Source: an uncultured Chlamydiae bacterium
GTDB lineage: Bacteria; Chlamydiota; Chlamydiia; Chlamydiales; JAJFMB01
Length of the DNA: 64,000 nucleotides
Direction of reading: 5' to 3'
Assembly: GCA_963696295.1 (NCBI GenBank)
Contig: CAVOJR010000001.1
Coordinates: forward strand, 352,001 to 416,000
Positions within the stretch are counted from its first letter, which is position 1, and each line of letters begins with the position of its first letter. Below are positions 45,626 to 60,346 of this stretch, in pieces. A program made the position numbers and the translations under genes. Under the pieces are notes generated by a model. It was not told where the DNA came from. It did no database searches and saw only the letters and a program-made list of their open reading frames with translations.

Positions 45626-47236
45626 TCAATCGGAAGGTGAGTTCATAAATTTTACAAAGTCGAGTAAGGCCTCGCTCGCAGAAACACGCTCTTCCGGATC
45701 GACTCTCAGCATTTTAGAAATAAGCCCCCAAAGGGAAGCATAGTCGGGGGTTTTTACTTTCCAGGCAGCGATATCCCCGTCGATGGAATCTTGCTGAAGG
45801 TCGGATAAATGACCATCATAAAAGCCTCCTTTTGAACCTTTTAAAAAAAGATCATTAATAGACTGTAATGGAGGAGTAATTATTCCAACAATTCGATCTT
45901 TTTTTGATATTTGAACAACATCTATTCTTCCAGTGAGAAGAGACGTGAAAATAAGTCCCAATGCCCATACATCCCTTTTTTGACCGATGGGAGGGAGTTT
46001 TTTCTTAAATTCATCACTCACAGCAATAGGAGGAGTACCGGGGCCGTTAGGATAAACCTGGCCTCGCAATTTCACCTCTGCAGGCGAAAGATACCCGATC
46101 GTCCCATTTCCAGGAGCAAAATTTCCCGAAACCCCAAAATCGATAAGCACAGCTTCCCATTTCCCCTCTGACTTCCGCAATAGAATATTGGAAAGATTGA
46201 TATCTAAATGGGTGGCTTTAGGAAAGGTTCTTGTTGTAATACCTTCTAAATCAATTGTGACTTCAGTTGGCGTAAAGGCATGGAGCGCGGAAAGACCCGT
46301 CAGCAGCTGCTGCATGATGGAGAGCACATCTTCCTTTTTTTTTATATGCCCCAAGAGATTTCGAAGGGTTCCTTCAAAAACCGGCTCAATGATATGATCG
46401 CTTTTAAATCCCGGATCTTTTGATAAAATATCCTGCACCGGTTCGATACCGGGCACCGGATTTTTTTTAAAATGGAGCAAAACAAGTTTTTCGATAGAGT
46501 TGGAAAGACATTTCTTTCGGACTGAGAATTCCCCGGTCATAAGGTCGTAACACCTTTTCACCTTTCTTTCCCCCCCTTTGGCAATGATCTCTTTGCTCCA
46601 TAACATAATCCGGCTCAATCTCCTGGGAGATTCCCTAATCACTTTGACAGTAATGGGAACATCAAACTCATTTTTAAGAGTAGTGTTATGAAACAGTTGT
46701 AATTTACGCTTAGTTCCCCCCTCTGATTTGACTTTGCTGCATATAAGAGTATGATTGTCCCCTTCTTCTCCAAAAGCTAATGGAACAACCTCGGAAAGGG
46801 CTTTTTCAAGGAAAGTTTTTTGACTATCAGTAAGACCGAGTTTGGCAGCATCAGCCGGCCATTTCATGGGTAATGGGGGAAGCAGACTATCAAAATCACA
46901 CGAGCCGACCTCATATTTGTAATTAGTTTTTTTCAGTAAAGGTTCGTAAAATTTTTTCTTAAAGCCTTCAAGAGAGGCATCGTCCAGAAATTCTTTATTA
47001 GCTTTGAAATAGGAAAAAAGGCTCTTGGCCACATTATTGACACGCACATGGCTGTATAGATCAATGCCAATTAGAGCAAGAAAGGGGCGGAACAGGCAAA
47101 GCAGCCTCCACTTAAAGCCCCCTTTTTGGACCACCTCCAGACGGTCGTTAATGAGTTGGCGCTGGTTAAGAGCGTTTTCGAACCCTGTTATCTTTCTTAA
47201 AAAATCATCTTTATTTTTTTCGGCAGAAAAAATCAC
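45626..47236 (-). CDS. Hanks-type Ser/Thr protein kinase
   Basis: IAKGGERKV, VRKK, HLDINLSNILL, IDFG, GTIGYLSP, DVWALG, DPEERVSA; GTG start overlapping the upstream TGA. Confidence 0.85.
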   Translation of the reverse strand: MIFSAEKNKDDFLRKITGFENALNQRQLINDRLEVVQKGGFKWRLLCLFRPFLALIGIDLYSHVRVNNVAKSLFSYFKANKEFLDDASLEGFKKKFYEPLLKKTNYKYEVGSCDFDSLLPPLPMKWPADAAKLGLTDSQKTFLEKALSEVVPLAFGEEGDNHTLICSKVKSEGGTKRKLQLFHNTTLKNEFDVPITVKVIRESPRRLSRIMLWSKEIIAKGGERKVKRCYDLMTGEFSVRKKCLSNSIEKLVLLHFKKNPVPGIEPVQDILSKDPGFKSDHIIEPVFEGTLRNLLGHIKKKEDVLSIMQQLLTGLSALHAFTPTEVTIDLEGITTRTFPKATHLDINLSNILLRKSEGKWEAVLIDFGVSGNFAPGNGTIGYLSPAEVKLRGQVYPNGPGTPPIAVSDEFKKKLPPIGQKRDVWALGLIFTSLLTGRIDVVQISKKDRIVGIITPPLQSINDLFLKGSKGGFYDGHLSDLQQDSIDGDIAAWKVKTPDYASLWGLISKMLRVDPEERVSASEALLDFVKFMNSPSD

Positions 47237-47910
47237 GACAACCCCCCGCCGCCGTAGTAGTAATAGCGGCAACTCTCATAATAACTTTCCAGCACGCTCT
47301 GTTTGAACGTGGCATAAAGCAGGGAAATATGGGGGTAAAATTCTTTTCTCTTTTCTAAGACAAAGGCTCTCATCTGCTGCGCCTTTAGATAATTGTCATT
47401 TTGGAAGCTCCGCATAGGACTTGCAAAGTTATTGTCCGGCTGAGAGAGAATTTCCAGCCCTTCAGTGACATCTATCCAGCCGAAGAGGAATAGGGCGTCA
47501 TATAAACCCCAAACTTCGTGCACTAAAGTTTTACCCGTCAAATCGTCCACCTTCATTTTCAACAGGCTGACAACTTCCTGTTGCGAGAAATTTTCGAGTC
47601 TCCACTGCAGAGTCCGGCATATAAAACAATATCCTTCTATCAAATCCTCGCTTATATAAGGGGAGGAATTCCGGCTCGGAGAGGGTAAACCTCTGTCCCG
47701 AAAAAATTGGTCATTTGTCAGTTCGTATATTTTGTTGTTTTTCCACTTCCCCAGCTCTTTCCATCCAGCGGTAATTAATTCGCTGATTTCTCTGTTACTG
47801 AAATTTTCAAGCAAGGGCCTGAGCGACCCTTCCGCTCCAACGACATCTTTAGCCGATAGGGGAAAATAATCAGTTCCGTAAGGATGGACGAGGAGCTCCT
47901 TGAGAACCAT
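47233..47910 (-). CDS. hypothetical protein
   Basis: 225-aa ORF coupled to the kinase gene. Confidence 0.6.
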   Translation of the reverse strand: MVLKELLVHPYGTDYFPLSAKDVVGAEGSLRPLLENFSNREISELITAGWKELGKWKNNKIYELTNDQFFRDRGLPSPSRNSSPYISEDLIEGYCFICRTLQWRLENFSQQEVVSLLKMKVDDLTGKTLVHEVWGLYDALFLFGWIDVTEGLEILSQPDNNFASPMRSFQNDNYLKAQQMRAFVLEKRKEFYPHISLLYATFKQSVLESYYESCRYYYYGGGGLS

Positions 47911-48539: not shown

Positions 48540-49355
48540 ATGCTAAACTGGAATGAGATAATTAAAAATTATATTATTAAACACTCCAACCGGATAAGTA
48601 AAACCACGCGCCCATTGCACGATCACTTCGGCATAGCCTATTTCACCTATCACCGCATCGACAACGCCGGGAAATACACCGTCCTGGTAGACCGCCCCAA
48701 CTGGGCGGAATACTATGTGGGCGCCGAGATTTTTCGGATCGACCCCTACTTGAAGCACCCCTCGGTCTATCAAGCCGGCATGAGTCTTTTCGACAGCCAT
48801 GGCTCGAAGGAATATAAAGAAAATGTGACAAAAGCGGGAAAAGAGGTACTCGATGTCGATCTTGGAGCAATCCTTATTCAAAAAAACAATCAATGTGTGG
48901 AGTTTTTTGGATTCTCTGCCAATAAAGAGAGAAGCTCGCTGCAAAACCTCTTCCTCAACCATTCCCATCTCTTAAAATCGTTCGCCCAGCATTTCAAAAA
49001 TGAGCTTGGCAGCGTGCTGAATCAGATGGAACAGGAGGCCGCCTCGCTGCTCGACCTGGGGACGGACTTCAATAATCCTGATCCCATCGCACCCGACATC
49101 TCCTCCGACGTCCGCCTGGCTTATTATAAAGACTTAGGAATGATAAGCGGCGCGGAAAAGCTCTCCCCAAGAGAGCGGGAATGCCTGAAATTGCTCATCG
49201 AAGAGAAATCGGCCAAAGAGACCGCCGTTGCCCTTGGTTTAAAGCCGAGGACTGTGGAATTTTATTTTGAAAACATCAAAGACAAACTCACCTGCTGGAG
49301 CAAGCAGGAAGTACTAAAAATTGCCCGAAATTGGAATGAACTAGGGCTTCTCTAA
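48540..49355 (+). CDS. LuxR-family transcriptional regulator
   Basis: C-terminal LSPRERECL..SAKETA..PRTVEFYFENIKDKL; N-terminal ligand-binding-like domain (WAEYY..IDPYL). Confidence 0.88.
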   Translation: MLNWNEIIKNYIIKHSNRISKTTRPLHDHFGIAYFTYHRIDNAGKYTVLVDRPNWAEYYVGAEIFRIDPYLKHPSVYQAGMSLFDSHGSKEYKENVTKAGKEVLDVDLGAILIQKNNQCVEFFGFSANKERSSLQNLFLNHSHLLKSFAQHFKNELGSVLNQMEQEAASLLDLGTDFNNPDPIAPDISSDVRLAYYKDLGMISGAEKLSPRERECLKLLIEEKSAKETAVALGLKPRTVEFYFENIKDKLTCWSKQEVLKIARNWNELGLL

Positions 49356-49909: not shown

Positions 49910-51637
49910 TTAATAACTCTTTACATTATAATCTTCTTCCATGGCTATCTGGACCAATTCTTTGGTAAACTGAAAAACATCGGTAATCGATCCCGGATAA
50001 TGAATCATCGTCGATATGGCAAGGGATGCTAATTCAGGGCCGCATTCTTTAATGGTTTGAATACATTTTTTTCTTCTGGCGGGATCGTTTCTATATTCCT
50101 CATCCGCCCATCCGATAAGAGAACGAAGTTGTTGAGGAGGAAGGACTTTTCCTTTAGCGGCAACATCTTCGAACAGCTCCACCACATTCTGCGGCTTATG
50201 TCCCAAAAGCAACTCTAAATTGGAATCGGACACATCCATAGGATGAGCCATTTGACTCTCCACTCCCCTGTAAGCATAATTAGTGGCATGTCCAATATTG
50301 ATAGTATCGCAAATTTTTTCTGTTATTTTCAGCGGAAGAACAAAGGGGCGTGGCTGATTTCCATAAGCTTTAGTCATCGCTTCTGTCAATTCGGCGGAAT
50401 TGGTCATGTGCCCAACAGCTGTTACAACAAATTTTCCATCGACACAAGCTGAGAAAGCTTCTCCAATATCATTAGATGAGGTGACGGGCAGCGGGATATT
50501 CCCGCCCCCTAAAGGCTGAATGGGGAGAAAAGCTGTGAAGGCAAGGCCGAAGGCTGTTGATTTACGAGTAGGAGCTCCGGGGCCGTCAATATAAGGCACT
50601 CTGATGAGGGTGCAATTGGTCGGCCCATATTGCAGCACTCTTTTTTCTTCTTCCTTTTTGAACTTTGCATAAATATCATCGGGAAGCATATCGACAACGG
50701 GGGAAGAAGCCGCATTCAATTGTATTCTTATGCCCATTTTATTTCCCTGGGTAGTTTCAAATTGGGCAGCCGCTTTGGCAATCATTTCACTCCGGTTAAG
50801 AGCTTTATCATAAGCTTCCTTGCAATTTTGCTGTACGGGTACGCCTAACAGGTTGTTAAATTGAACCTCTTTTTTCCCGGTTGAAACTTTTGTTATTAAA
50901 TTGACCCACTCATCTTGGCTGGTTGGAGTTAAGACATAATGGAGGCGTTCTAACTGCTTGGGTGTCAATTTTTTGATTATCTCAGCCATTTCAGGCGTGT
51001 CATAAGGGTTTTCCTTTCTTGAAGTAAAAGTCACATCAAAACCGCTTTTCAGGGCCTGAATGATACTATAATAGGCAATGTCTCCCGTTCCCCCTGCAAT
51101 GAGGACAGCCACTTCTTCTGGATGGTTAACATAGTGGTTTTGATGAATGACAGCAGAGGAAGCCGATCCATCCGGAAGCTTGGAAACAACGGCAACATCT
51201 TTTTCAGGTTTGAGCTCTACAGGTTTAATCTCCTCTTCATAGATATCAATTATTTGAGCTATCCCTTTATGCCTGGCATTAGAATTGGCATAGTCATGGG
51301 CAAGGGCTGCGGCGCCTAAAAGACCCACTCCAGCGGCCGCTTTGGTCCCGGTACCGGCGCCCTTCCCCGATTGTTTGGGGTTGGGGAGTCCTGTAGGGAA
51401 TTTGACTTGCGGTTTAATAAGCTCGAGCTCTTTTATTCTGAAATTGAAGGGGCGGGCTTGTGGTATACTGAGAGGTGTAGCGTGGAAATTTCGGGCGCTG
51501 TTTTCGAAGAGAGTGGTTTTGGCAACCTTGCCCGTATTGGTTATTGTTCTGGGAACCCCTTTTGTTAGGCCGTTTCTAAGGGCGTAGCCCATGGTGACCA
51601 TTATTCTTTCTGCCGGACCTCTGATAATATTTAACAT
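49910..51637 (-). CDS. atypical SDR/Rossmann protein with long N-terminal extension
   Basis: VLIAGGTGDIA, YAKFKKEEE, LIRVPYIDGPG; basic N-terminus with ARNFHAT and hydrophobic AAAGVGLLGAAALA. Confidence 0.65.
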   Translation of the reverse strand: MLNIIRGPAERIMVTMGYALRNGLTKGVPRTITNTGKVAKTTLFENSARNFHATPLSIPQARPFNFRIKELELIKPQVKFPTGLPNPKQSGKGAGTGTKAAAGVGLLGAAALAHDYANSNARHKGIAQIIDIYEEEIKPVELKPEKDVAVVSKLPDGSASSAVIHQNHYVNHPEEVAVLIAGGTGDIAYYSIIQALKSGFDVTFTSRKENPYDTPEMAEIIKKLTPKQLERLHYVLTPTSQDEWVNLITKVSTGKKEVQFNNLLGVPVQQNCKEAYDKALNRSEMIAKAAAQFETTQGNKMGIRIQLNAASSPVVDMLPDDIYAKFKKEEEKRVLQYGPTNCTLIRVPYIDGPGAPTRKSTAFGLAFTAFLPIQPLGGGNIPLPVTSSNDIGEAFSACVDGKFVVTAVGHMTNSAELTEAMTKAYGNQPRPFVLPLKITEKICDTINIGHATNYAYRGVESQMAHPMDVSDSNLELLLGHKPQNVVELFEDVAAKGKVLPPQQLRSLIGWADEEYRNDPARRKKCIQTIKECGPELASLAISTMIHYPGSITDVFQFTKELVQIAMEEDYNVKSY

Positions 51638-51743: not shown

Positions 51744-52844
51744 TTAATGGCGGCAGAGATCTTCCTGCATCCATTGTAACGCTTTTCTTAAATCCGGTTC
51801 CGCGACTTCAGCACAGTAGTGCTCCCCGCAGCTCAAAGAAGAGCCGATCCCGTCGATCATCACAAAACGGGGCTTGCCCTGGCGGGCTTTCTTATCCAAC
51901 GCCATCGCCTCCAAAATAGATTCCACAGGCAACCGGCAAGGCAAGCGCAAAGGAAGCCCGTACTGACTGAGAATCTGTCTGATTTTGTCGCTCAAGGAAA
52001 GGCCGCCAGGCGAAAGGCGGCTTTCGACAAGAAGCCCGATCGCCACGGCTTCCCCATGGGAGAGGGCGTAATGGGTCAGCCGCTCCAAGGCGTGTCCGAT
52101 CGTATGGCCAAAATTCAATAGATGCCGCCTCCCTTTCTCCTTTTCATCTTGCTCCACGATCTCTTTTTTGATGCGGCAGCTCTCAAAAATCGCCTTTTCC
52201 AGAGTCGGGGGATCTAAGCTCAAAATCTGATGGGCATGAGTGTCAAGATACTCAAAAAAAGCGCGGTCTGCGATCAAACCGTGTTTTATCATCTCGACTA
52301 CTCCGTTGGAGAGCTCGTTTGCAGGCAAGCTTTTAAGGGTGGAGGGATCGATTACCACTTTCTTGGGCTGATAAATACATCCCAGCAAATTTTTTCCATA
52401 GGGAACATTGACCCCTGTTTTCCCCCCGATACTGGCATCCACCATCCCAAGGAGGGAGGTGGGGACCTGGACATAGGGAACGCCGCGGCAAAAGGTGGCG
52501 GCGAGATACCCGGCCACATCGGTTGCCACGCCGCCCCCAAGGGCGATCACACAGGTGTCGCGGCCAAGCCCCTTTTCAAACAGCCGATTTTCCAATTGCT
52601 CCTTGGTCTCCCGCGTTTTGTTCTGCTCCCCATGAGGAAAGGGGAAGAGATAGGCTTCCAAACCCAAAGAGGCAAAGGCCTCGCGGAGCGCTTCTCCATA
52701 CAAGGCCGCCACAATGTCATCGGAGATGATGGCTACCCGCTCCTTCAATATAGCGAGGCTCTGAGGGAGCTGCTGCAGCGCTCCGCTGCGGATTTCAATT
52801 TCATAAGATTCGGATTCATGTGGGATGTTACAAATCAATTTCAT
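51744..52844 (-). CDS. aroB: 3-dehydroquinate synthase
   Basis: GEQNKT, LGGGVATD, DASIGGKTGVN, LNFGHTIGHALE, HGEAV; start MKLIC. Confidence 0.96.
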   Translation of the reverse strand: MKLICNIPHESESYEIEIRSGALQQLPQSLAILKERVAIISDDIVAALYGEALREAFASLGLEAYLFPFPHGEQNKTRETKEQLENRLFEKGLGRDTCVIALGGGVATDVAGYLAATFCRGVPYVQVPTSLLGMVDASIGGKTGVNVPYGKNLLGCIYQPKKVVIDPSTLKSLPANELSNGVVEMIKHGLIADRAFFEYLDTHAHQILSLDPPTLEKAIFESCRIKKEIVEQDEKEKGRRHLLNFGHTIGHALERLTHYALSHGEAVAIGLLVESRLSPGGLSLSDKIRQILSQYGLPLRLPCRLPVESILEAMALDKKARQGKPRFVMIDGIGSSLSCGEHYCAEVAEPDLRKALQWMQEDLCRH

Positions 52845-53932
52845 AGTTTCGCGCACCTGTTTAAGAGGAGGGCATCCGCAATCACTAAAGCGGCCATCGC
52901 TTCCACAATCGGGACAGCGCGTATCGCCACACAAGGATCGTGCCGCGACCCTATTGTGAGTTGAAACGACGCCTCTTCTTTGGACGTGGAAAGAGTCTGC
53001 TGCGGTTTCATGATACTCGAGGTGGGTTTGAAGGCTACCCTGCCGACGAGGGGCATCCCCGTGGATATCCCCCCTAAAGTCCCTCCCGCGTAATTGGTTG
53101 CGGTCTTCACTTCGCCCCCCACCTGTATGAAAGGATCGTTGTGTTCCGATCCCGGCATGGCGACCGACCTGAATCCCGAGCCGATTTCAAACCCCTTGGT
53201 GGCAGGCAGGCTCATCATGGCGTGCGCCAGATTAGCCTCCAATTTTTCATAAACCGGATCGCCAAGACCGGGCGGAAGCGAGAGAGCCATAAACTCGATC
53301 AGGCCCCCCAGAGAATCCCCTTCCGCTTTTGCCCGCTCTATCAGAGCCGCCATCTCAGACGCGGCCCTGGCATCGGGACAAAATAGGGGGCTTTGGTATG
53401 TTAAGGTGCGGATTAACTCGATATTGTCCCCTTCGACGATAGCCTCGACAGGGCCGATCTGCCTGATATAGGCCGTGAGCTTTATGCCATAGTGATCGAG
53501 CAGCTTCCTAGCCACAGCCCCGGCGGCCACGCGGCAGGCCGTTTCTCTCGCGGAGGAGCGGCCTCCCCCCCTGTAATCAAAAATCCCATATTTTTCCAGA
53601 TAGGTATAATTAGCATGCCCGGGCCGCAGCAAATCTTTGATCGGCTCATATTTGCTGGAATCGGCGTCTTGATTAGGAATAAGGATGCAGATCGGCGCGC
53701 CGGTCGTTTTCCCTTCAAAGACGCCCGAGAGAATTTCCGCTTTGTCCCCTTCTGTCCTCGGGGTGGTATAGGGGCTTTTTCCGGGGGCCCGCAATGCCAG
53801 AGCCGCATTGATTTCGCTCTCCTCAATGGCCAGGCCGGCCGGGCATCCGTCGATCACAACGCCTATCGCCTTGCCATGGGATTCTCCCCAGGTGGTAATC
53901 TTAAAAATATTCCCAAATGTATTACTTCCCAT
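52841..53932 (-). CDS. aroC: chorismate synthase
   Basis: TWGESHG, RPGHA, GGGRSSARET, GGISTG, RHDPCV. Confidence 0.97.
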   Translation of the reverse strand: MGSNTFGNIFKITTWGESHGKAIGVVIDGCPAGLAIEESEINAALALRAPGKSPYTTPRTEGDKAEILSGVFEGKTTGAPICILIPNQDADSSKYEPIKDLLRPGHANYTYLEKYGIFDYRGGGRSSARETACRVAAGAVARKLLDHYGIKLTAYIRQIGPVEAIVEGDNIELIRTLTYQSPLFCPDARAASEMAALIERAKAEGDSLGGLIEFMALSLPPGLGDPVYEKLEANLAHAMMSLPATKGFEIGSGFRSVAMPGSEHNDPFIQVGGEVKTATNYAGGTLGGISTGMPLVGRVAFKPTSSIMKPQQTLSTSKEEASFQLTIGSRHDPCVAIRAVPIVEAMAALVIADALLLNRCAKL

Positions 53933-54425
53933 AAGACAATTCCTTTAGGATGGCGGCCACAACTTCACTTTCGCTTAAGCAGCCTGTGTCAATAATCGCA
54001 TGCGCGGCTTTCTCATAAAGCGGTAAGCGCCTTTTTGCGAGTTCGGCAAATGATTTTTCCGGATCCCGGCGATCCAGATAGGCCGGGATCTCCTGCATTC
54101 TTTCAAGGAGCCTGTTTAGCGGAGCTTGAAGGTAAACCAATTTCCCGTTTGCCTGGAGGTTTCTCACATTGTCAGGATCATTCAGGCTTCCTCCCCCTAC
54201 TGCGATCACACTCTTTGAAACCCCTTGCAAAGAGGCGATTTGCTCTTTTTCCAGTTCCCGGAACGCCTTTTCCCCCTCTGCGAGAAATATGGCGCGGCAA
54301 GGGCTTCCCCTGACTTGCTCGATCAGCCGGTCGGTGTCGATAAAATTCCAGCCAAGCTTCTCTGCCACCCTTTTTCCGATCGTCGTTTTTCCGCTCATCG
54401 GCAGTCCGCACAAAATAATGTTCAT
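53922..54425 (-). CDS. aroK: shikimate kinase
   Basis: GLPMSGKTT, DTD, GEKAFRELE, GGG, RLPLY. Confidence 0.93.
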   Translation of the reverse strand: MNIILCGLPMSGKTTIGKRVAEKLGWNFIDTDRLIEQVRGSPCRAIFLAEGEKAFRELEKEQIASLQGVSKSVIAVGGGSLNDPDNVRNLQANGKLVYLQAPLNRLLERMQEIPAYLDRRDPEKSFAELAKRRLPLYEKAAHAIIDTGCLSESEVVAAILKELSYGK

Positions 54426-55717
54426 AAAAGCTCCTCAATGTCAGCGCCCAGGGCATTGAAATCGCGCTTGAAGGTCGGGAACGTTTTGGAAACGCATTCC
54501 ACAGAATCCACTATCGTTTCCCCCTCGGCGCCCAAGGCGGCCACAGCGAGCGACATCGCCATCCGGTGGTCGTGGTGCGAGTGCACATGCGCTCCCTTGA
54601 GCGAGGATTTCCTGATGCATAAACCCTCTTCTGTTTCGGTGATGTCCGCCCCCATTTTCCTCAATTCTTCGGCAATGCAGCGGATCCGGTTGCACTCTTT
54701 TTGCTTCGCGACGGCGGCATTGACGATGCGCGTCTCCCCTTCGGCATAGCACGACACCACGGCTAAAATAGTGATGGCATCGATGAAGGCGTTGATATCC
54801 ACCTCAAGGCCTCTTAGAGGGCCCCCTTTTTTGACATGCACCGTTTTGTTTTCCTCGTCGATTTCGATCGCGCCCCCCATCTTCTGAAATACCCTCAGAA
54901 GCTCTTTATCTCCTTGAGAATCGTTCATATCGATATTGTGCACAGTCAATTCCGATTGGGTGATTAAGGCCGCCGCAATCGGAAAGGCAGCGGAACTGAA
55001 ATCGCCTGGAACCGTGTATTCAAAACCCTCGATCCTGCTATTTCCCAAAAGGCGGTACCGCTCAAATGCCCGATTTTCATAAGGGATGCTAAGCTTGTCA
55101 AACCAATCCAATGTCAGCGAAATCCACGGTTTTTCCCCGGGATTTTGAACCTCAAGCTCTACGGGGCCTTCGGCGAAAGCGGAAGCGATCAGCAGCGCAG
55201 ACACCGGCTGTGAATCTTCCCCGTTGAGCAAGGCTCTTCCCGGCTTGATTGGGCCTTGAATGATCACCGGCGCATAGCCGTCCCCCCGCATGGAGGCGGT
55301 TGATACGCCGAGCTGAGCGAGGCCGCCTAGCAGCGGTTTCATCGGCCGCTGATGGCGAATAGAATAATCTCCTGTGATGACGACCGGTTTTTTGGCGAGC
55401 GCGCCGATGGCGGTACAAAACCGCAGCACAATGCCTGAGTTGCCGGCGTTGATCACATCTTCCGTATGATCGACTTTGCCGCTGATCCCTTCAATATCGA
55501 TGTGATGAGGGGAAACATCCAAAGCGGCCCCGAAAAGGCGGCAAGCCTCGATCATGGCGTGCGTATCCGAAGAGGGGAGATAGCGGTTAATCCGGCTCTT
55601 TCCCCTTCCCAGCGCTCCGAAAAGGAGGGCTCTTAGCGTATGGGATTTGGAGGCAGGGACCGAAATCCCTCCCTTCACTGTCCCTTGTTTTATTCTGTAT
55701 CTCATTTTTGACATCAT
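54422..55717 (-). CDS. aroA: EPSP synthase
   Basis: PASKSHTLR, GNSGIVLRF, RPMKPL, KECNRI, HDHRMAMS, KTFP. Confidence 0.96.
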   Translation of the reverse strand: MMSKMRYRIKQGTVKGGISVPASKSHTLRALLFGALGRGKSRINRYLPSSDTHAMIEACRLFGAALDVSPHHIDIEGISGKVDHTEDVINAGNSGIVLRFCTAIGALAKKPVVITGDYSIRHQRPMKPLLGGLAQLGVSTASMRGDGYAPVIIQGPIKPGRALLNGEDSQPVSALLIASAFAEGPVELEVQNPGEKPWISLTLDWFDKLSIPYENRAFERYRLLGNSRIEGFEYTVPGDFSSAAFPIAAALITQSELTVHNIDMNDSQGDKELLRVFQKMGGAIEIDEENKTVHVKKGGPLRGLEVDINAFIDAITILAVVSCYAEGETRIVNAAVAKQKECNRIRCIAEELRKMGADITETEEGLCIRKSSLKGAHVHSHHDHRMAMSLAVAALGAEGETIVDSVECVSKTFPTFKRDFNALGADIEELL

Positions 55718-56727
55718 ATCATCCCTGCCTTTAAATAATCCAGCCATCGCTCCAAGTAATAGCGGATGAGAGGCTGGTTTTCTATTTCCCCATTGTCGCG
55801 AGCCAGGCGGGTAAAGGATTGAAACCCGGGTCCGGCTATCCTCAAGCTCTCCTTGTCGTGGGCGCTCACAAAATCGAAATACGATTTCGATAATACAGCG
55901 GGAAGGTGGGAAACCAAAGCCGCCTGATGGTCATGGACGGCAGCCTCTAAAAAGACGGGTTTGCCCCCCAAGTACTTGATCCACTCGATGATGCTGTCAA
56001 TACCATTTCCCTGGTGAGGCACAACCACCCATGGCCTGTTAACAAACAAAGTCGCCTGGCTATTGGCAAATCCCCCGTTCTCCTTGCCGGCCATCGGGTG
56101 GGTGCTGATATATTCCAAGCCCTCCCCCGACAGCTTTTCAAAAGTTGCCGCGATGGCCGTTTTCACACCGGCAATATCGATCACGATCAATTTTTTCTGG
56201 CAGTGCCGCTTAATCTCCTCTGCCAAAGGGATTATCGTTGAGAGAGGGGAAGCTAAAACAATCAGCTCCGCGTTCTGAACCAGCTCTTGCATCCCGGAAT
56301 ACACCTTGTCAATCCATCCCCCTGCCAGCGCCTCCTCATCCACAGCGCCGCTGACCGTCCCGATCTCAATAGAGGGATCTTTCGTTTTGAGCGCTTTAGC
56401 GAGCGACCCCCCCATCAGCCCCACCCCCACGATGCCGATGCGGCGGAACGGTTGAGAAAGGTGTTGAAAAAAATGTTGCGCCACCTTCGATTCCTGCATG
56501 ATTTCCCTATAGATATGTCCGATATTCTCTTTTAAAACCGGATGCCGGACGACCCTCTCCACCTGATCCAGAACTTTCTCTTCCCGGGAAAAATCGGTCA
56601 CATCCTGGTGCCGCTCGGCCTTGATTTTTCCCGCCTGATCGGCCGCGCTCATCCTTTCATTGAGCAATGAGGCAATTTGAGCATCCAGCCAATCGATCCT
56701 TTCCCGCAATTTCTCTAATTTGTCCAT
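55714..56727 (-). CDS. tyrA: chorismate mutase (AroQ)-prephenate dehydrogenase fusion
   Basis: LRERIDWLDAQIASLLNER..REEKVL; GVGLMGGS, HPMAG, HDHQAALVSHLP, GPGFQSFTRLA. Confidence 0.9.
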   Translation of the reverse strand: MDKLEKLRERIDWLDAQIASLLNERMSAADQAGKIKAERHQDVTDFSREEKVLDQVERVVRHPVLKENIGHIYREIMQESKVAQHFFQHLSQPFRRIGIVGVGLMGGSLAKALKTKDPSIEIGTVSGAVDEEALAGGWIDKVYSGMQELVQNAELIVLASPLSTIIPLAEEIKRHCQKKLIVIDIAGVKTAIAATFEKLSGEGLEYISTHPMAGKENGGFANSQATLFVNRPWVVVPHQGNGIDSIIEWIKYLGGKPVFLEAAVHDHQAALVSHLPAVLSKSYFDFVSAHDKESLRIAGPGFQSFTRLARDNGEIENQPLIRYYLERWLDYLKAGMI

Positions 56728-57524
56728 CCCAATCCTCTTTGATATAAACCCAATAATTTGTGTTTTTTAAGTTTCTCCAAAACCTTTTCAATCTCTATTC
56801 CCCTAAATTCGAAGTCGAGATAGAACAGATACTCAAAAGGGGAGCCCTTTAAAGGGCGGGACTCCAGCCTGGTTAAATTAATCCCAGCCTCGGCGAAAGG
56901 ATTCAGTATTTCAGCAAGAGCTCCCGGAACATGGTTCAGCTGCAACAGCAGCGAGCACTTATCGGCAAGTTCCCCAGGCTCTGCTTTTTTTGCGAGCGTC
57001 ACAAAGCGGGTATAATTCCTCGGATCGTCTTCAATCCCCTTTTCAATCATTTCCAACCCATACAGCCTTTGCGCGCTTGCGCTGGCAATGGCTGCGAGGG
57101 AGGGATCTCCTAAAGAGGCGATCTCTTGCGCTGCGGCGGCCGTATCGATAAAGACGACCGCTTCCATCCAGGGATGCCGCTCAAAAAAGTTCCGGCATTG
57201 ATCCAGCGCTTTTGGGTGGGACAGCACCTTTTTTATCCCCTTTAAATCCTTTTGCACCCCAAGCAGGCACTGTTCGATTTTAGTGTAATGCTCTCCAATA
57301 ATCTGCATGTCAAAGGCGTTCAGAAGATCGTAGTTCTCGCAGATGGAGCCGATCAGACTGTTTTCGATGGGGATCACCGCATAATCAGCCGCCCCCGTCT
57401 CAATATGCTCAAAAACGGCTTTAAAGGTGGGCAACCCTAAGTAATTGTGCCCCTCGCCAAACGCTTTTAAAGCCGTCATATGGCTGAAGGCTCCCTCAAC
57501 TCCCTGATAAGCAATCGTTTTCAT
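56715..57524 (-). CDS. pheA: prephenate dehydratase with ACT domain
   Basis: AYQGVEGAFS, PIENS, SHPKALDQC, NYTRF, INLTRLESRP. Confidence 0.94.
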   Translation of the reverse strand: MKTIAYQGVEGAFSHMTALKAFGEGHNYLGLPTFKAVFEHIETGAADYAVIPIENSLIGSICENYDLLNAFDMQIIGEHYTKIEQCLLGVQKDLKGIKKVLSHPKALDQCRNFFERHPWMEAVVFIDTAAAAQEIASLGDPSLAAIASASAQRLYGLEMIEKGIEDDPRNYTRFVTLAKKAEPGELADKCSLLLQLNHVPGALAEILNPFAEAGINLTRLESRPLKGSPFEYLFYLDFEFRGIEIEKVLEKLKKHKLLGLYQRGLGWTN

Positions 57525-58288
57525 GCCGCCTCTAGCTTTTTTAACAAATCTTGCAACTGAGGCGGAGAAAGCTGCTGCTTCGCATCGGTTATCGCATTTC
57601 CGGGATCGGAGTGCATTTCGATGAGATACCCATCAAAATCATACGCCAGGGCGCTTTGACAAATCGCGAGGACATTCTCTTGAGTGCCTCCGATATGGGA
57701 GGGATCGAGAATCATTGGGAGACCTGTCTTTGCCTTGACCCGCATGGCCATCTCAAAATCGGGCAGGTTGCGGTAACCGTTCAGATTTGGCGCCTTGCCC
57801 GGAGAAAATCCCCGATGGCAGATCATCAGCCGTTCCCGGGGAAACCCCTCGGAGAGAATATGTTCGTGGATCCCCAGCCAATGCTTTTCATCCTCCCACA
57901 TCTGGTTCTTGAACATCAAGGTGATCCCCTCAGGCCCGGTGGAAAGTATTTTAGAGATCTTCTGCTGCTCCATGTGATTTTGATTGCGGGATCCGAGCCA
58001 CACGACCATCCGCGCCTCAGGCCCATAGTGCTCCATCGCGTGCACCACCATCAGGGCGTGTTCCGCCGTCATGATTTCCGTGGCCGGCACTAACCCGTAA
58101 GGGATCGTTTCCTCAAGCAGAAGGGGAAGGCCCATCCTTCCGAACCCCTCCCACCCGGGCTGTGTGCGGGGCTTCCACAAAGAAGCGCGCACCATCGCGA
58201 CCCCCATCCGCCTCAAGACCTGCACACACTCCTTCAGCTGCTGCGGGGACTCCAAGGCGCACGGTCCTGCTATGACCATTTTATTCAT
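57521..58288 (-). CDS. DAHP synthase class I-beta, catalytic barrel only
   Basis: IAGPCALES, WKPRT, GSRN, CHRG, DPSH, EMH..DAKQQL. Confidence 0.88.
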   Translation of the reverse strand: MNKMVIAGPCALESPQQLKECVQVLRRMGVAMVRASLWKPRTQPGWEGFGRMGLPLLLEETIPYGLVPATEIMTAEHALMVVHAMEHYGPEARMVVWLGSRNQNHMEQQKISKILSTGPEGITLMFKNQMWEDEKHWLGIHEHILSEGFPRERLMICHRGFSPGKAPNLNGYRNLPDFEMAMRVKAKTGLPMILDPSHIGGTQENVLAICQSALAYDFDGYLIEMHSDPGNAITDAKQQLSPPQLQDLLKKLEAA

Positions 58289-58313
58289 ATAAATTCTCCT
58301 GTTTATTTTTGGG

Positions 58314-58341
58314 CAAAAAAAAACCCCGCTTTTGGCGGGGT
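58314..58341 (-). terminator. attenuator terminator of the aro/phe/tyr operon
   Basis: Minus strand ACCCCGC-caaaa-GCGGGGT followed by a long U run. Confidence 0.88.
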
Positions 58342-58371
58342 CTGTTTTTAGCTTGTCTTTTTTTACAAGCG

Positions 58372-58440
58372 TCAGTCAGCCTCCCGCCTCATGGGTTTAG
58401 TAAAAAAGAAAAAAAAGGCGGTAAAAGACAAACGGTTCAT
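58372..58440 (-). CDS. Phe-rich attenuation leader peptide (PheL-like)
   Basis: MNRLSFTAFFFFFTKPMRREAD*; RBS AAGGAA; five consecutive Phe codons. Confidence 0.85.
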   Translation of the reverse strand: MNRLSFTAFFFFFTKPMRREAD

Positions 58441-58464
58441 GTAAAATTCCTTCATTTAACTATA

Positions 58465-58493
58465 ATTCTATATTATAATAAATTAATTGTCAA
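58465..58493 (-). promoter_or_regulatory. sigma70/sigma66-type promoter of the leader-aro operon
   Basis: TTGACA-17 nt-TAGAAT on the minus strand. Confidence 0.8.
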
Positions 58494-58609
58494 TATAATA
58501 TTACATTAGTTGAAATAAAATAAAACAAAAGCGCGGATGCTTTTGACCAAAAGTTACTCAATTGATAAGACTCTTTCCGATGAATTTATCTTTCTGCTAA
58601 ATTGCAAGC

Positions 58610-60346
58610 GTGAATTCTCGGACTCAAAAATTTTTGTCGTATTATAAACCCCATTTGGGATTGTTTTGCGCTGACATGGCCTGCGCCATTATCGTTTCGG
58701 CAATTACTTTGGCTCTTCCCCTAATCGTCAGATACATCACCAAAAATTTGCTGGAACCCGACACGCCCGATGCCCTCAGTCAAATCTATGCGATGGGCGC
58801 CCTCATGCTTTTGCTGGTGGCCATTCATACGGCATGCCACGCCTTCATCGACTATAAAGGGCATGTGATGGGCGCGCTGATGGAAGGGGACATGCGCAAT
58901 GATTTGTTTGAACATTACCAAAAGCTCTCGTTCAATTTTTATGATGAGCAAAGAACGGGACAGCTGATGACCCGGATCTCAAACGATTCGTTCGACCTTT
59001 CCGAATTATACCATCACGGCCCTGAGGATATCGTCATTTCCCTGCTGAATTTTATCGGCGCGTGCATCATCTTATTCTACATCAATGTCAAGCTGACCCT
59101 TATCGTCCTGCTCTTTGTGCCCGTCATGGGTGCGTATGGCTATTATTTCAGCCGTAAAATGAGAATCGCTTTGAGAAAAAGCAAGGACCGCATCGGCGAT
59201 ATCAACGCTCAGGTGGAAGATACCCTTGCGGGCATTAGAGTGGTCAAGTCATTTACAAACGAAGAAATTGAAAAGCAAAAGTTCGCCGAAGAAAACCGCC
59301 GTTTTGTCGAAAGCCGCAAAGAAGGATATAAAAGCGAGGCCTATTTTTATGACGGATTGATCCTGTTCACGCAGCTCATGACCATTGCCGTTGTCATTTT
59401 TGGAGGAGCCGGCATTGTTAAAAAGTCGATCGATTTAGCCGATTTACTGACATTCTTGCTTTATATCGGCATTCTCATTGAACCCATACAGAGGCTCGGC
59501 AATTTTACGAGGCTATACCAGGAAGGGTTTACCGGTTTTGAAAGATTTATGGAAGTCTTGGAGGTAGCGCCCGATATCAAAGACGCGCCTGATGCCATGG
59601 AGCTTACAGACGTAAAAGGGAATATAGAATTTAAAAATGTGAGCTTCAAGTATAAAGAAGGTTATGACCATATCCTGAAGCATATTAATCTGCAAATAAA
59701 AGCCGGAGATTATCTGGCCTTGGTCGGGCCCTCGGGCGCCGGGAAAACAACTCTTTGCTCCTTGATTCCCCGGTTTTATGAAGTCAGCAAAGGGGAAATC
59801 CTGCTTGACGGCAAAAATATCAACAGCCTTACCATGCGCTCGTTAAGAAGAAATATTGGCATCGTCCAGCAAGATGTCTATCTCTTTGCCGGAACGGTTT
59901 CCGACAATATACGCTACGGCAAACTCAATGCGGGCGAGGAGGAAATCATAAGGGCCGCCAAAAAGGCCAATGCCCATGATTTTATCATGGCGCTGCCGAA
60001 GGGATATGCCACAGATATCGGGGAGCGGGGCGTAAAATTATCGGGAGGGCAAAAGCAGAGACTGAGCATCGCGCGCGTTTTCCTGAAAGACCCCCCCATT
60101 ATCATTTTTGATGAAGCTACGAGCTCTCTGGACAATGAAAGCGAAAAAGCCGTGCGGGATTCTCTGGAGACATTGACGCATAACCGCACCACCATCGTCA
60201 TCGCCCATCGTTTGTCAACCGTCCGAAACGCCAGGAAAATTCTGGTATTAACCGACAATGGAATAGAGGAGCAAGGCACCCACGAGGAGTTGATTGCCTT
60301 GAATGGCACTTATGCGAGTTTATACAAACTGCAGCTAAGGATTTAA
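58610..60346 (+). CDS. ABC exporter, fused permease/ATPase
   Basis: TMD + GPSGAGKTT, LSGGQKQRL, FDEATS. Confidence 0.92.
   Translation: MNSRTQKFLSYYKPHLGLFCADMACAIIVSAITLALPLIVRYITKNLLEPDTPDALSQIYAMGALMLLLVAIHTACHAFIDYKGHVMGALMEGDMRNDLFEHYQKLSFNFYDEQRTGQLMTRISNDSFDLSELYHHGPEDIVISLLNFIGACIILFYINVKLTLIVLLFVPVMGAYGYYFSRKMRIALRKSKDRIGDINAQVEDTLAGIRVVKSFTNEEIEKQKFAEENRRFVESRKEGYKSEAYFYDGLILFTQLMTIAVVIFGGAGIVKKSIDLADLLTFLLYIGILIEPIQRLGNFTRLYQEGFTGFERFMEVLEVAPDIKDAPDAMELTDVKGNIEFKNVSFKYKEGYDHILKHINLQIKAGDYLALVGPSGAGKTTLCSLIPRFYEVSKGEILLDGKNINSLTMRSLRRNIGIVQQDVYLFAGTVSDNIRYGKLNAGEEEIIRAAKKANAHDFIMALPKGYATDIGERGVKLSGGQKQRLSIARVFLKDPPIIIFDEATSSLDNESEKAVRDSLETLTHNRTTIVIAHRLSTVRNARKILVLTDNGIEEQGTHEELIALNGTYASLYKLQLRI

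Follow-up and report, generated by a model that had tools for sequence, protein, structure and literature searches.

Ribosome-mediated attenuation of aromatic amino acid genes is a classical mechanism, represented by pheL and aroR, and is in itself not new. In the E. coli pheL-pheA leader, as described in the available part of PMC3082878, a short ORF with an internal run of Phe codons is combined with 1:2, 2:3 and 3:4 helices and a U run, all of which recur, the 1:2 helix as a putative one, in the element studied here. In functional terms, the nearest precedents are leaders of DAHP synthase genes, namely aroR of C. glutamicum and uORFC-13-1 of Acholeplasma. The C. glutamicum aroR-aroF attenuator (Neshat et al. 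2014) is presented, in the accessible portion of PMC11802643, as a Phe-Tyr-Phe leader of a DAHP synthase operon which responds to Phe and not to Tyr. The uORFC-13-1 motif, according to the accessible text of PMC8632094, is a predicted uORF for Phe, equipped with a promoter, an RBS and a terminator and located upstream of DAHP synthase (aroF); its 24 examples stem from Acholeplasma and environmental sequences. Compared by these partial descriptions, both resemble our element in that a Phe/Tyr or Phe leader is placed directly upstream of DAHP synthase. Putative attenuators before tyrA operons are listed in the available part of PMC1173090.

The element lies on a window, i.e., the whole analyzed stretch of 64,000 nucleotides, from an uncultured chlamydia whose genome (G000) comprises 3.43 Mb and is 97.4% complete. 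The nearest relatives of its DAHP synthase carry the label Parachlamydiaceae, and the genome has a match to Hc1, a family that also matched one of 14 control genomes; both observations support its chlamydial origin.

Chlamydiae possess few regulators. The sole leader-peptide attenuator proposed for the phylum, TrpL of C. trachomatis, is reported to be non-functional as such, TrpL-mediated attenuation being stated as absent in the available text of PMC7755916. Candidate trpL ORFs of C. trachomatis and C. felis are given in the accessible part of PMC3937554, where Simkania is named as the one chlamydia for which synthesis of Phe and Tyr was known at that time. As far as these two partly available articles describe it, control of trpRBA in C. 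trachomatis shares with our element the phylum and the sensing of an aromatic amino acid by ribosome stalling; TrpL, however, is unvalidated and atypical and YtgR (WWW motif) acts in trans, whereas the window element would be a cis-acting Phe attenuator. Phe synthesis is inferred to have been lost in the chlamydial ancestor in the available sections of PMC9816063, which, along with its patchy distribution, suggests that the operon was regained.

Our literature search returned no Phe or Tyr attenuator for Chlamydiota or Patescibacteria, most subscription papers and the supplements lying outside its scope. The parts of PMC4833913 and PMC2659441 that were available contain nothing on chlamydial attenuators, and the screen of PMC8632094, by its accessible text, took in a Chlamydiae genome, so that its supplements may bear on novelty. 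A preliminary description of the locus had held a Phe attenuator to be undescribed in Chlamydiota; this agrees with the search, and as far as searched the element is new for the phylum. A canonical, compact attenuator at this place would show tight coupling of transcription and translation as well as Phe sensing in Chlamydiota, and it is amenable to a reporter test in E. coli.

Leader, alternative folds and operon

The preliminary description had read a promoter, an RBS, a 22-aa ORF with five tandem Phe codons and four pairing segments with a U run from the minus strand. All of them are present in the sequence where they had been placed. In direction of transcription, the leader comprises the following features:

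58465..58493, minus strand: sigma-70/66-type promoter TTGACA-17-TAGAAT (promoter score 11/12)
58447..58452, minus strand: Shine-Dalgarno sequence AAGGAA of the leader ORF (sequence)
58372..58440, minus strand: leader ORF of 22 codons, MNRLSFTAFFFFFTKPMRREAD, followed by the stop codon (sequence, homologues)
58415..58421, minus strand: segment 1, the protector arm, pairing with segment 2 in the untranslated leader; its sequence is not conserved
58402..58416, minus strand: five tandem Phe control codons, leader codons 9-13, TTT TTT TTC TTT TTT (sequence)
58377..58389, minus strand: segment 2, the 5' arm of the antiterminator, its core starting 13 nt past the last Phe codon (folding, family comparison)
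58351..58370, minus strand: post-stop hairpin of 6 bp with an 8-nt loop (folding; 33 of 35 chlamydia-type units)
58334..58340, minus strand: segment 3, CCCCGCC, common to antiterminator and terminator (folding, family comparison)
58324..58329, minus strand: segment 4, GCGGGG (sequence)
58315..58343, minus strand: intrinsic terminator, 3:4 stem plus nine-U run (9 pairs, 6 of them G-C)
58295..58300, minus strand: RBS AGGAGA of DAHP synthase (sequence, folding)

The promoter is the best of two promoter-like sites within 57500-59500, and transcription of the leader is predicted to start near 58458. Another in-frame ATG is situated at 58455, 3 nt past this predicted start site and without space for an RBS; if used leaderless, it would extend the leader by five residues including Phe and Tyr. 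Besides the five control codons, the leader contains an extra Phe codon (Phe6, 58425-58423). CCGCCT of segment 1 begins at 58421, directly 5' of the Phe run, and overlaps the run with its final base only; segments 2 (GGCGGG), 3 and 4 begin at 58388, 58340 and 58329. Downstream of the run, the ORF continues for nine codons through segment 2 and ends in GCT-GAC-TGA, unlike the ORFs of the pheL group, which end in UUC-CCC-UGA as far as PMC3082878 was available. The nine-U run (58323-58315) ends 27 nt before the start of DAHP synthase. Since the nearest upstream gene, encoding an ABC transporter (58610, plus strand), is divergent, the terminator ends no other gene.

Five consecutive Phe residues are encoded in just two of the 5309 short ORFs with Shine-Dalgarno sequence and ATG found in the 3.43-Mb genome, namely the window leader and a permease-linked paralogue. 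A scan of 301 terminator-like sites in the genome yielded three with an aromatic-rich ORF upstream, including the same two elements; the third, C1:1398261, lacks the family helices and was rejected as a family member.

The leader folds with -43.6 kcal/mol (z = -3.38), and none of 200 shuffles folds as well. For constrained folding, the ribosome was modelled as a pairing block with an assumed footprint of -18 to +12 nt relative to the A-site codon, and nascent RNA was represented by cutting just after segment 3. On this cut RNA, P(2:3) amounts to 1.00 as long as the modelled ribosome occupies any of codons 5-14, drops to 0.88 at codon 15 and is 0.00 at codon 16 and all later positions up to the stop codon; even in absence of the ribosome it is 0.81. 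The exclusive pairing proposed beforehand, 1:2 and 3:4 versus 2:3, is thus reproduced in silico, with 2:3 formed while the ribosome covers the Phe codons and no 2:3 at the stop codon. Full-length untranslated RNA folds as 1:2 plus 3:4, the 1:2 helix of the window having a probability of 0.88. The terminator prevails on full-length RNA at equilibrium despite a stalled ribosome (P(3:4) of 0.77-1.00 at codons 9-13). When 2:3 or 3:4 is enforced, the energy difference between the two folds is 1.1 kcal/mol for a ribosome at Phe11 and 4.8 kcal/mol at Phe13. Therefore, read-through would need kinetic trapping, in which 2:3 is formed first. The post-stop hairpin sits within the antiterminator loop, and in the window copy its 3' part can instead pair with ORF codons 3-6. 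Translational control of DAHP synthase by sequestering of its RBS was rejected, as AGGAGA lies outside of all helices.

The dominance of the terminator at equilibrium might be taken to mean that it is an unregulated, leaky dampener of transcription, accompanied by an ORF that either arose incidentally from a U-rich tract or is the decaying remnant of an ancestral tandem attenuator. T-rich DNA gives Phe codons by chance, and the window lacks the second unit and the Tyr codons of its nearest relatives. Nevertheless, RBS, start, frame, spacing and all helices are intact, the two ORFs with five tandem Phe codons both precede aromatic genes, and the paralogue uses TTC for three of its five Phe codons, which makes such a dampener extremely unlikely. 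We rather assign a probability of roughly 0.88 to the window element being a real, intact and classical ribosome-mediated transcription attenuator reading Phe-tRNA(Phe). This reading is supported by the constrained folding, by helices that co-vary among approximately 100 homologous units, and by the paralogue with a Phe run before a permease gene. The same three lines favor the earlier idea of stalling-dependent read-through under Phe limitation, at the level of a model.

In this attenuator, translation of the leader would set the choice of fold. With plentiful Phe, the ribosome would reach the leader stop codon and cover segment 2, such that 3:4 forms and transcription terminates at 58323-58315. 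With scarce Phe, it would stall on codons 9-13 and mask segment 1; segment 2, then free, could pair with segment 3 ahead of the synthesis of segment 4, allowing RNA polymerase to proceed into the seven-gene operon. In an untranslated leader 1:2 would form, with termination as the default.

The operon had been described as a seven-gene shikimate/Phe/Tyr operon, and its genes could be identified from DAHP synthase to aroB:

57521..58288, minus strand: DAHP synthase, type I-beta, 255 aa (PRK08673 positions 95-327 of 338; best PDB match 1zco, 262 aa)
56715..57524, minus strand: prephenate dehydratase with ACT domain (profile match)
55714..56727, minus strand: chorismate mutase-prephenate dehydrogenase fusion (profile match)
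54422..55720, minus strand: aroA, EPSP synthase (profile match over cut-off)
53922..54425, minus strand: aroK, shikimate kinase (profile match)
52841..53932, minus strand: aroC, chorismate synthase (profile match over cut-off)
51744..52850, minus strand: aroB, 3-dehydroquinate synthase (profile match over cut-off)

Every gene overlaps its successor and frameshifts are absent; shikimate dehydrogenase is encoded elsewhere in the genome. Thus, while pheL controls pheA alone, the element at hand precedes the whole shikimate-to-Phe/Tyr pathway with DAHP synthase at its head, and its paralogue a permease gene. Because the match to PRK08673 is confined to positions 95-327 of 338 and the best PDB match is 1zco, an unregulated enzyme of 262 residues, the DAHP synthase of the operon is devoid of an N-terminal regulatory domain. 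Consequently, the attenuator is the sole visible control on pathway entry.

Some further observations concern this region. Compared with most of their close relatives, DAHP synthase, dehydratase and mutase-dehydrogenase (55714-58288) are all shortened by about 10-15 residues, and the alignments of the latter two show small in-frame deletions. A 575-aa ORF (49910-51637) follows on the same strand, 107 nt past aroB, with no match in Pfam or NCBIfam; a strong terminator between aroB and this ORF was looked for and none was seen. Farther along, 48540-49355 encodes a regulator with a LuxR/GerE domain and 45626-47272 a 548-aa protein with putative kinase-like motifs read by eye.

A search for trpE-like genes in G000 gave none apart from one chorismate-binding protein, which precedes a TPP enzyme and was read as part of a menF-menD pair. 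With this single protein being a probable MenF, chorismate probably does not feed Trp in G000. The genome also contains a cluster (C1:1224636-1231473) of trpR, a permease gene, trp genes and kynureninase, resembling the kynurenine-salvage operon of C. caviae; TrpR, TrpA and kynureninase were tested, and the other names were read from the sequences.

The leader family at DAHP synthase loci

Loci were collected from 61 relatives, 400 genomes of the phylum (11 of which, including G000, have this DAHP clade), 15 GTDB loci and the best 80 of 201 metagenome matches. Duplicates, the window itself and loci with less than 300 nt upstream were left out of the count. At an identity of at least 43%, a unit of leader and terminator precedes 67 of 82 loci, split into 42 single and 25 tandem arrangements with 15 loci devoid of a unit, where the metagenome part represents the best 80 of 201 matches. 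The leader, which the preliminary description had suggested to look for before orthologous operons, is hence conserved. At an identity of at least 60% all 19 loci have a unit, 13 in tandem, and upstream of distant DAHP homologues it was found in 0 of 14 cases. The leaders contain Phe and Tyr, partly also Trp, and their hosts belong to Chlamydiota and Patescibacteria; named records comprise Parachlamydiaceae, Chlamydiales, an Oligoflexia MAG, Roizmanbacteria and other Patescibacteria. Compared with C. glutamicum aroR, the family resides in other phyla and has longer F/Y runs, often in tandem.

The family is uncatalogued. The best Rfam match of the window element is Phe_leader (RF01859; 36.5 bits, E 4e-4) over the full model, with a score below the gathering score of 55 bits, which was reached by none of 20 related loci either; Rfam cut-offs thus miss the family. 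One of its core forms, GGGAGG/CCTCCC, resembles the Phe_leader consensus. The 22 Rfam matches at E up to 10 include neither a T-box nor a riboswitch model.

A two-sided switch was obtained in silico in 74 of 102 distinct units versus 105 of 1020 shuffles, the other 28 units failing to give one (metagenome part, best 80 of 201 matches). In 95 of 101 units, the distance from the final control codon to the start of segment 2 is 8-16 nt. Between sub-families, segments 2, 3 and 4 vary in concert (GGCGGG/CCCGCC/GCGGGG, GGGAGG/CCTCCC/GGGAGG and GGAAGG/CCTTCC/GGAAGG), a complementarity which is partly built in, as segment 2 was chosen by folding against segment 3. In 31 chlamydia-type units the 2:3 core is nearly invariant, being 97.2% paired with no two-sided changes, versus 43-65% in slid controls; covariation therefore comes from the wider family only. 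A short segment-2 hairpin suggested by RNAalifold was not reproduced, since segment 2 pairs downstream in 0 of 101 single-sequence ensembles.

With respect to the four segments, the preliminary scheme holds in part: all of them exist, but just 4 of 35 chlamydia-type units share the segment 1 sequence of the window, and the post-stop hairpin had been overlooked. In 33 of the 35 units, a partner for segment 2 exists somewhere in the preceding portion of the ORF. The hairpin, occurring in as many, is varied in sequence and has a mean energy of -7.5 kcal/mol versus -2.6 kcal/mol in shuffled sequences.

Tandem loci have a promoter scoring at least 10/12 before unit 1 in 15 of 25 cases and between the units in none, so the two units act in series. 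A comparable pair of short leader ORFs per leader, as in these 25 relatives, is given for the tandem attenuators of Salmonella mgtCBR in the available part of PMC3641672; the genes there are unrelated, and the window itself is a single unit. Two complete Phe/Tyr attenuators in series behind one promoter are seen in L024, L025, L026, L030, L037, L041, L052-L055, L057, L058 and others. In L028 and L056, a single leader is succeeded by two terminators with a spacing of 28-29 nt, which may be what is left after deletion of a second unit. Shikimate operons of Patescibacteria (Roizmanbacteria) under the same attenuators are represented by L032-L036 and many metagenome loci. The tree places L031 and L034, whose contigs are labelled Gammaproteobacteria, among these Patescibacteria, possibly owing to mis-binning or transfer.

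Both synonyms of the control codons are in use across the family (TTT 282, TTC 47, TAT 168, TAC 98). The Tyr fraction of the leaders is 0.60-1.00 in all four operons with dehydrogenase and without dehydratase and 0-0.56 in 16 operons with both, where two of the four are sisters, the contig of one breaks off shortly behind, and a value of 0.40 is still reached by two operons lacking the dehydrogenase. This is suggestive only of a leader Tyr content that tracks operon content, operons without dehydratase being Tyr-rich.

Codon usage also bears on whether the attenuator reads the general state of translation, or the modification of UNN-reading tRNAs at A37 by MiaA/MiaB, in place of or besides Phe supply. 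Loss of miaA derepresses Phe and Trp attenuators. MiaA is linked to Trp attenuation in the accessible part of PMC13434334, and it is encoded in G000. Of 657 control-cluster codons, 626 start with T, a share largely built in because clusters were picked for F/Y/W. On the other hand, the codons for Ser, Cys and Leu of the UNN type are rare in these clusters, and their make-up follows the regulated genes, being Phe-dominant before permeases and Tyr-rich in operons without dehydratase. We thus regard tRNA modification or translation state as an improbable signal compared with Phe supply.

The Phe-only leader of the window

The window leader is the only one without a Tyr codon among 102 DAHP-linked units, the metagenome part of which comprises the best 80 of 201 matches. 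A quick tree was built from 97 DAHP sequences, leaving out duplicates, truncated or frameshifted loci and those below 43% identity; in it, the window DAHP synthase falls into a clade of 11 with a support of 97. The other ten members all have Tyr codons and eight have two units. In its simplest reading, the window lineage would descend from a tandem Phe/Tyr ancestor and have lost unit 2 and the Tyr codons, the Phe-only state being derived. The claim of Phe sensing made beforehand would accordingly apply to the window, whose leader is Phe-only, but not to the family as a whole, which appears to sense Phe plus Tyr, sometimes Trp, and often with two units in series.

Its solitary position among the 102 units, along with T8 and T6 runs in the tract, could point to an assembly error that conceals Tyr codons of the true leader. 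We consider such an error highly improbable: downstream of the Phe run the frame agrees with relatives, the seven operon genes are free of frameshifts, a second all-Phe leader with mixed TTC and TTT exists in the same genome, and a run of five Phe codons is also found in another genome (L147). Contigs assembled from three DNA runs contained no sequence of this leader.

An intact Phe-only attenuator leaves a point against it, since the operon encodes the Tyr branch too, which a Phe-only sensor would not monitor. Synthesis of Tyr from Phe as a reason for Phe-only sensing was rejected, PF00351 Phe hydroxylase being absent in G000 and in five of five relatives tested. Decay of the Tyr branch found no support either. 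The dehydrogenase retains its NAD-binding, HPM and FTRLA motifs, with a 6-residue deletion near the C-terminus, and the identity gap of the enzyme is similar to that of its neighbors: identities to six close relatives versus among these are 0.64/0.69 for the dehydrogenase, 0.69/0.74 for the mutase, 0.79/0.83 for DAHP synthase and 0.64/0.70 for the dehydratase.

Copies before permease and aminotransferase genes

A second attenuator with five Phe codons is located at C1:2563355-2563236 of G000 (L151, L138; minus strand), upstream of an aromatic amino acid permease gene (C1:2563210-2562032), the predicted substrate being Phe. The attenuator has a promoter of its own (TTGACA-17-TAAAAT), three of its Phe codons are TTC, and its switch RNA is nearly the same as that of the window, read in another frame. 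Gene conversion between the two copies was rejected for want of evidence, the shared motif being equally conserved in other genomes. By this second copy, the permease would be put under the same Phe signal. Behind the permease gene follow gatC and an amidase gene (gatA), which may be read through from the attenuator.

A pattern search gave matches in 9 of 401 genomes and none in the reversed control. In six of the nine, which have no DAHP-clade match, the element directly precedes a permease gene (three) or an operon of a HisC-like aminotransferase, an unknown gene and a permease-like gene (three). Including G000, Phe-rich copies before aromatic permeases are thus present in four genomes. The non-DAHP copies have Phe-dominant leaders, and the switch works in silico in seven of seven. 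G000 encodes seven permeases of the TyrP family, whose substrates are otherwise ambiguous and for which such a leader predicts Phe.

Taken together, these copies raise the possibility that environmental chlamydiae possess a small RNA-only aromatic regulon derived from one portable attenuator module, to which we give about even odds. The module would be used twice in series to sharpen the response, occur as further copies before permeases and the aminotransferase operon, and be retuned by a few codons, being Phe-only for uptake and in this genome and Tyr-rich where the dehydratase is missing. If true, it would provide the first working leader-peptide attenuator in Chlamydiota, within a family common to Patescibacteria, and an intracellular symbiont would gauge the phenylalanine of its host with its ribosomes. 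The natural variants, single or tandem and Phe, Phe/Tyr, Tyr or Trp-containing, offer a means to probe the benefit of tandem units and the specificity of codon sets.

The three aminotransferase operons (L142, L147 and L148 in G047, G219 and G232) reveal two additional features. They encode a protein of 330-390 aa, with no Pfam match in the two tested. Between terminator and aminotransferase gene, each has a second, longer ORF of 50-59 codons with a Phe-rich run at its end and a hairpin behind it, possibly a second sensor of a different kind.
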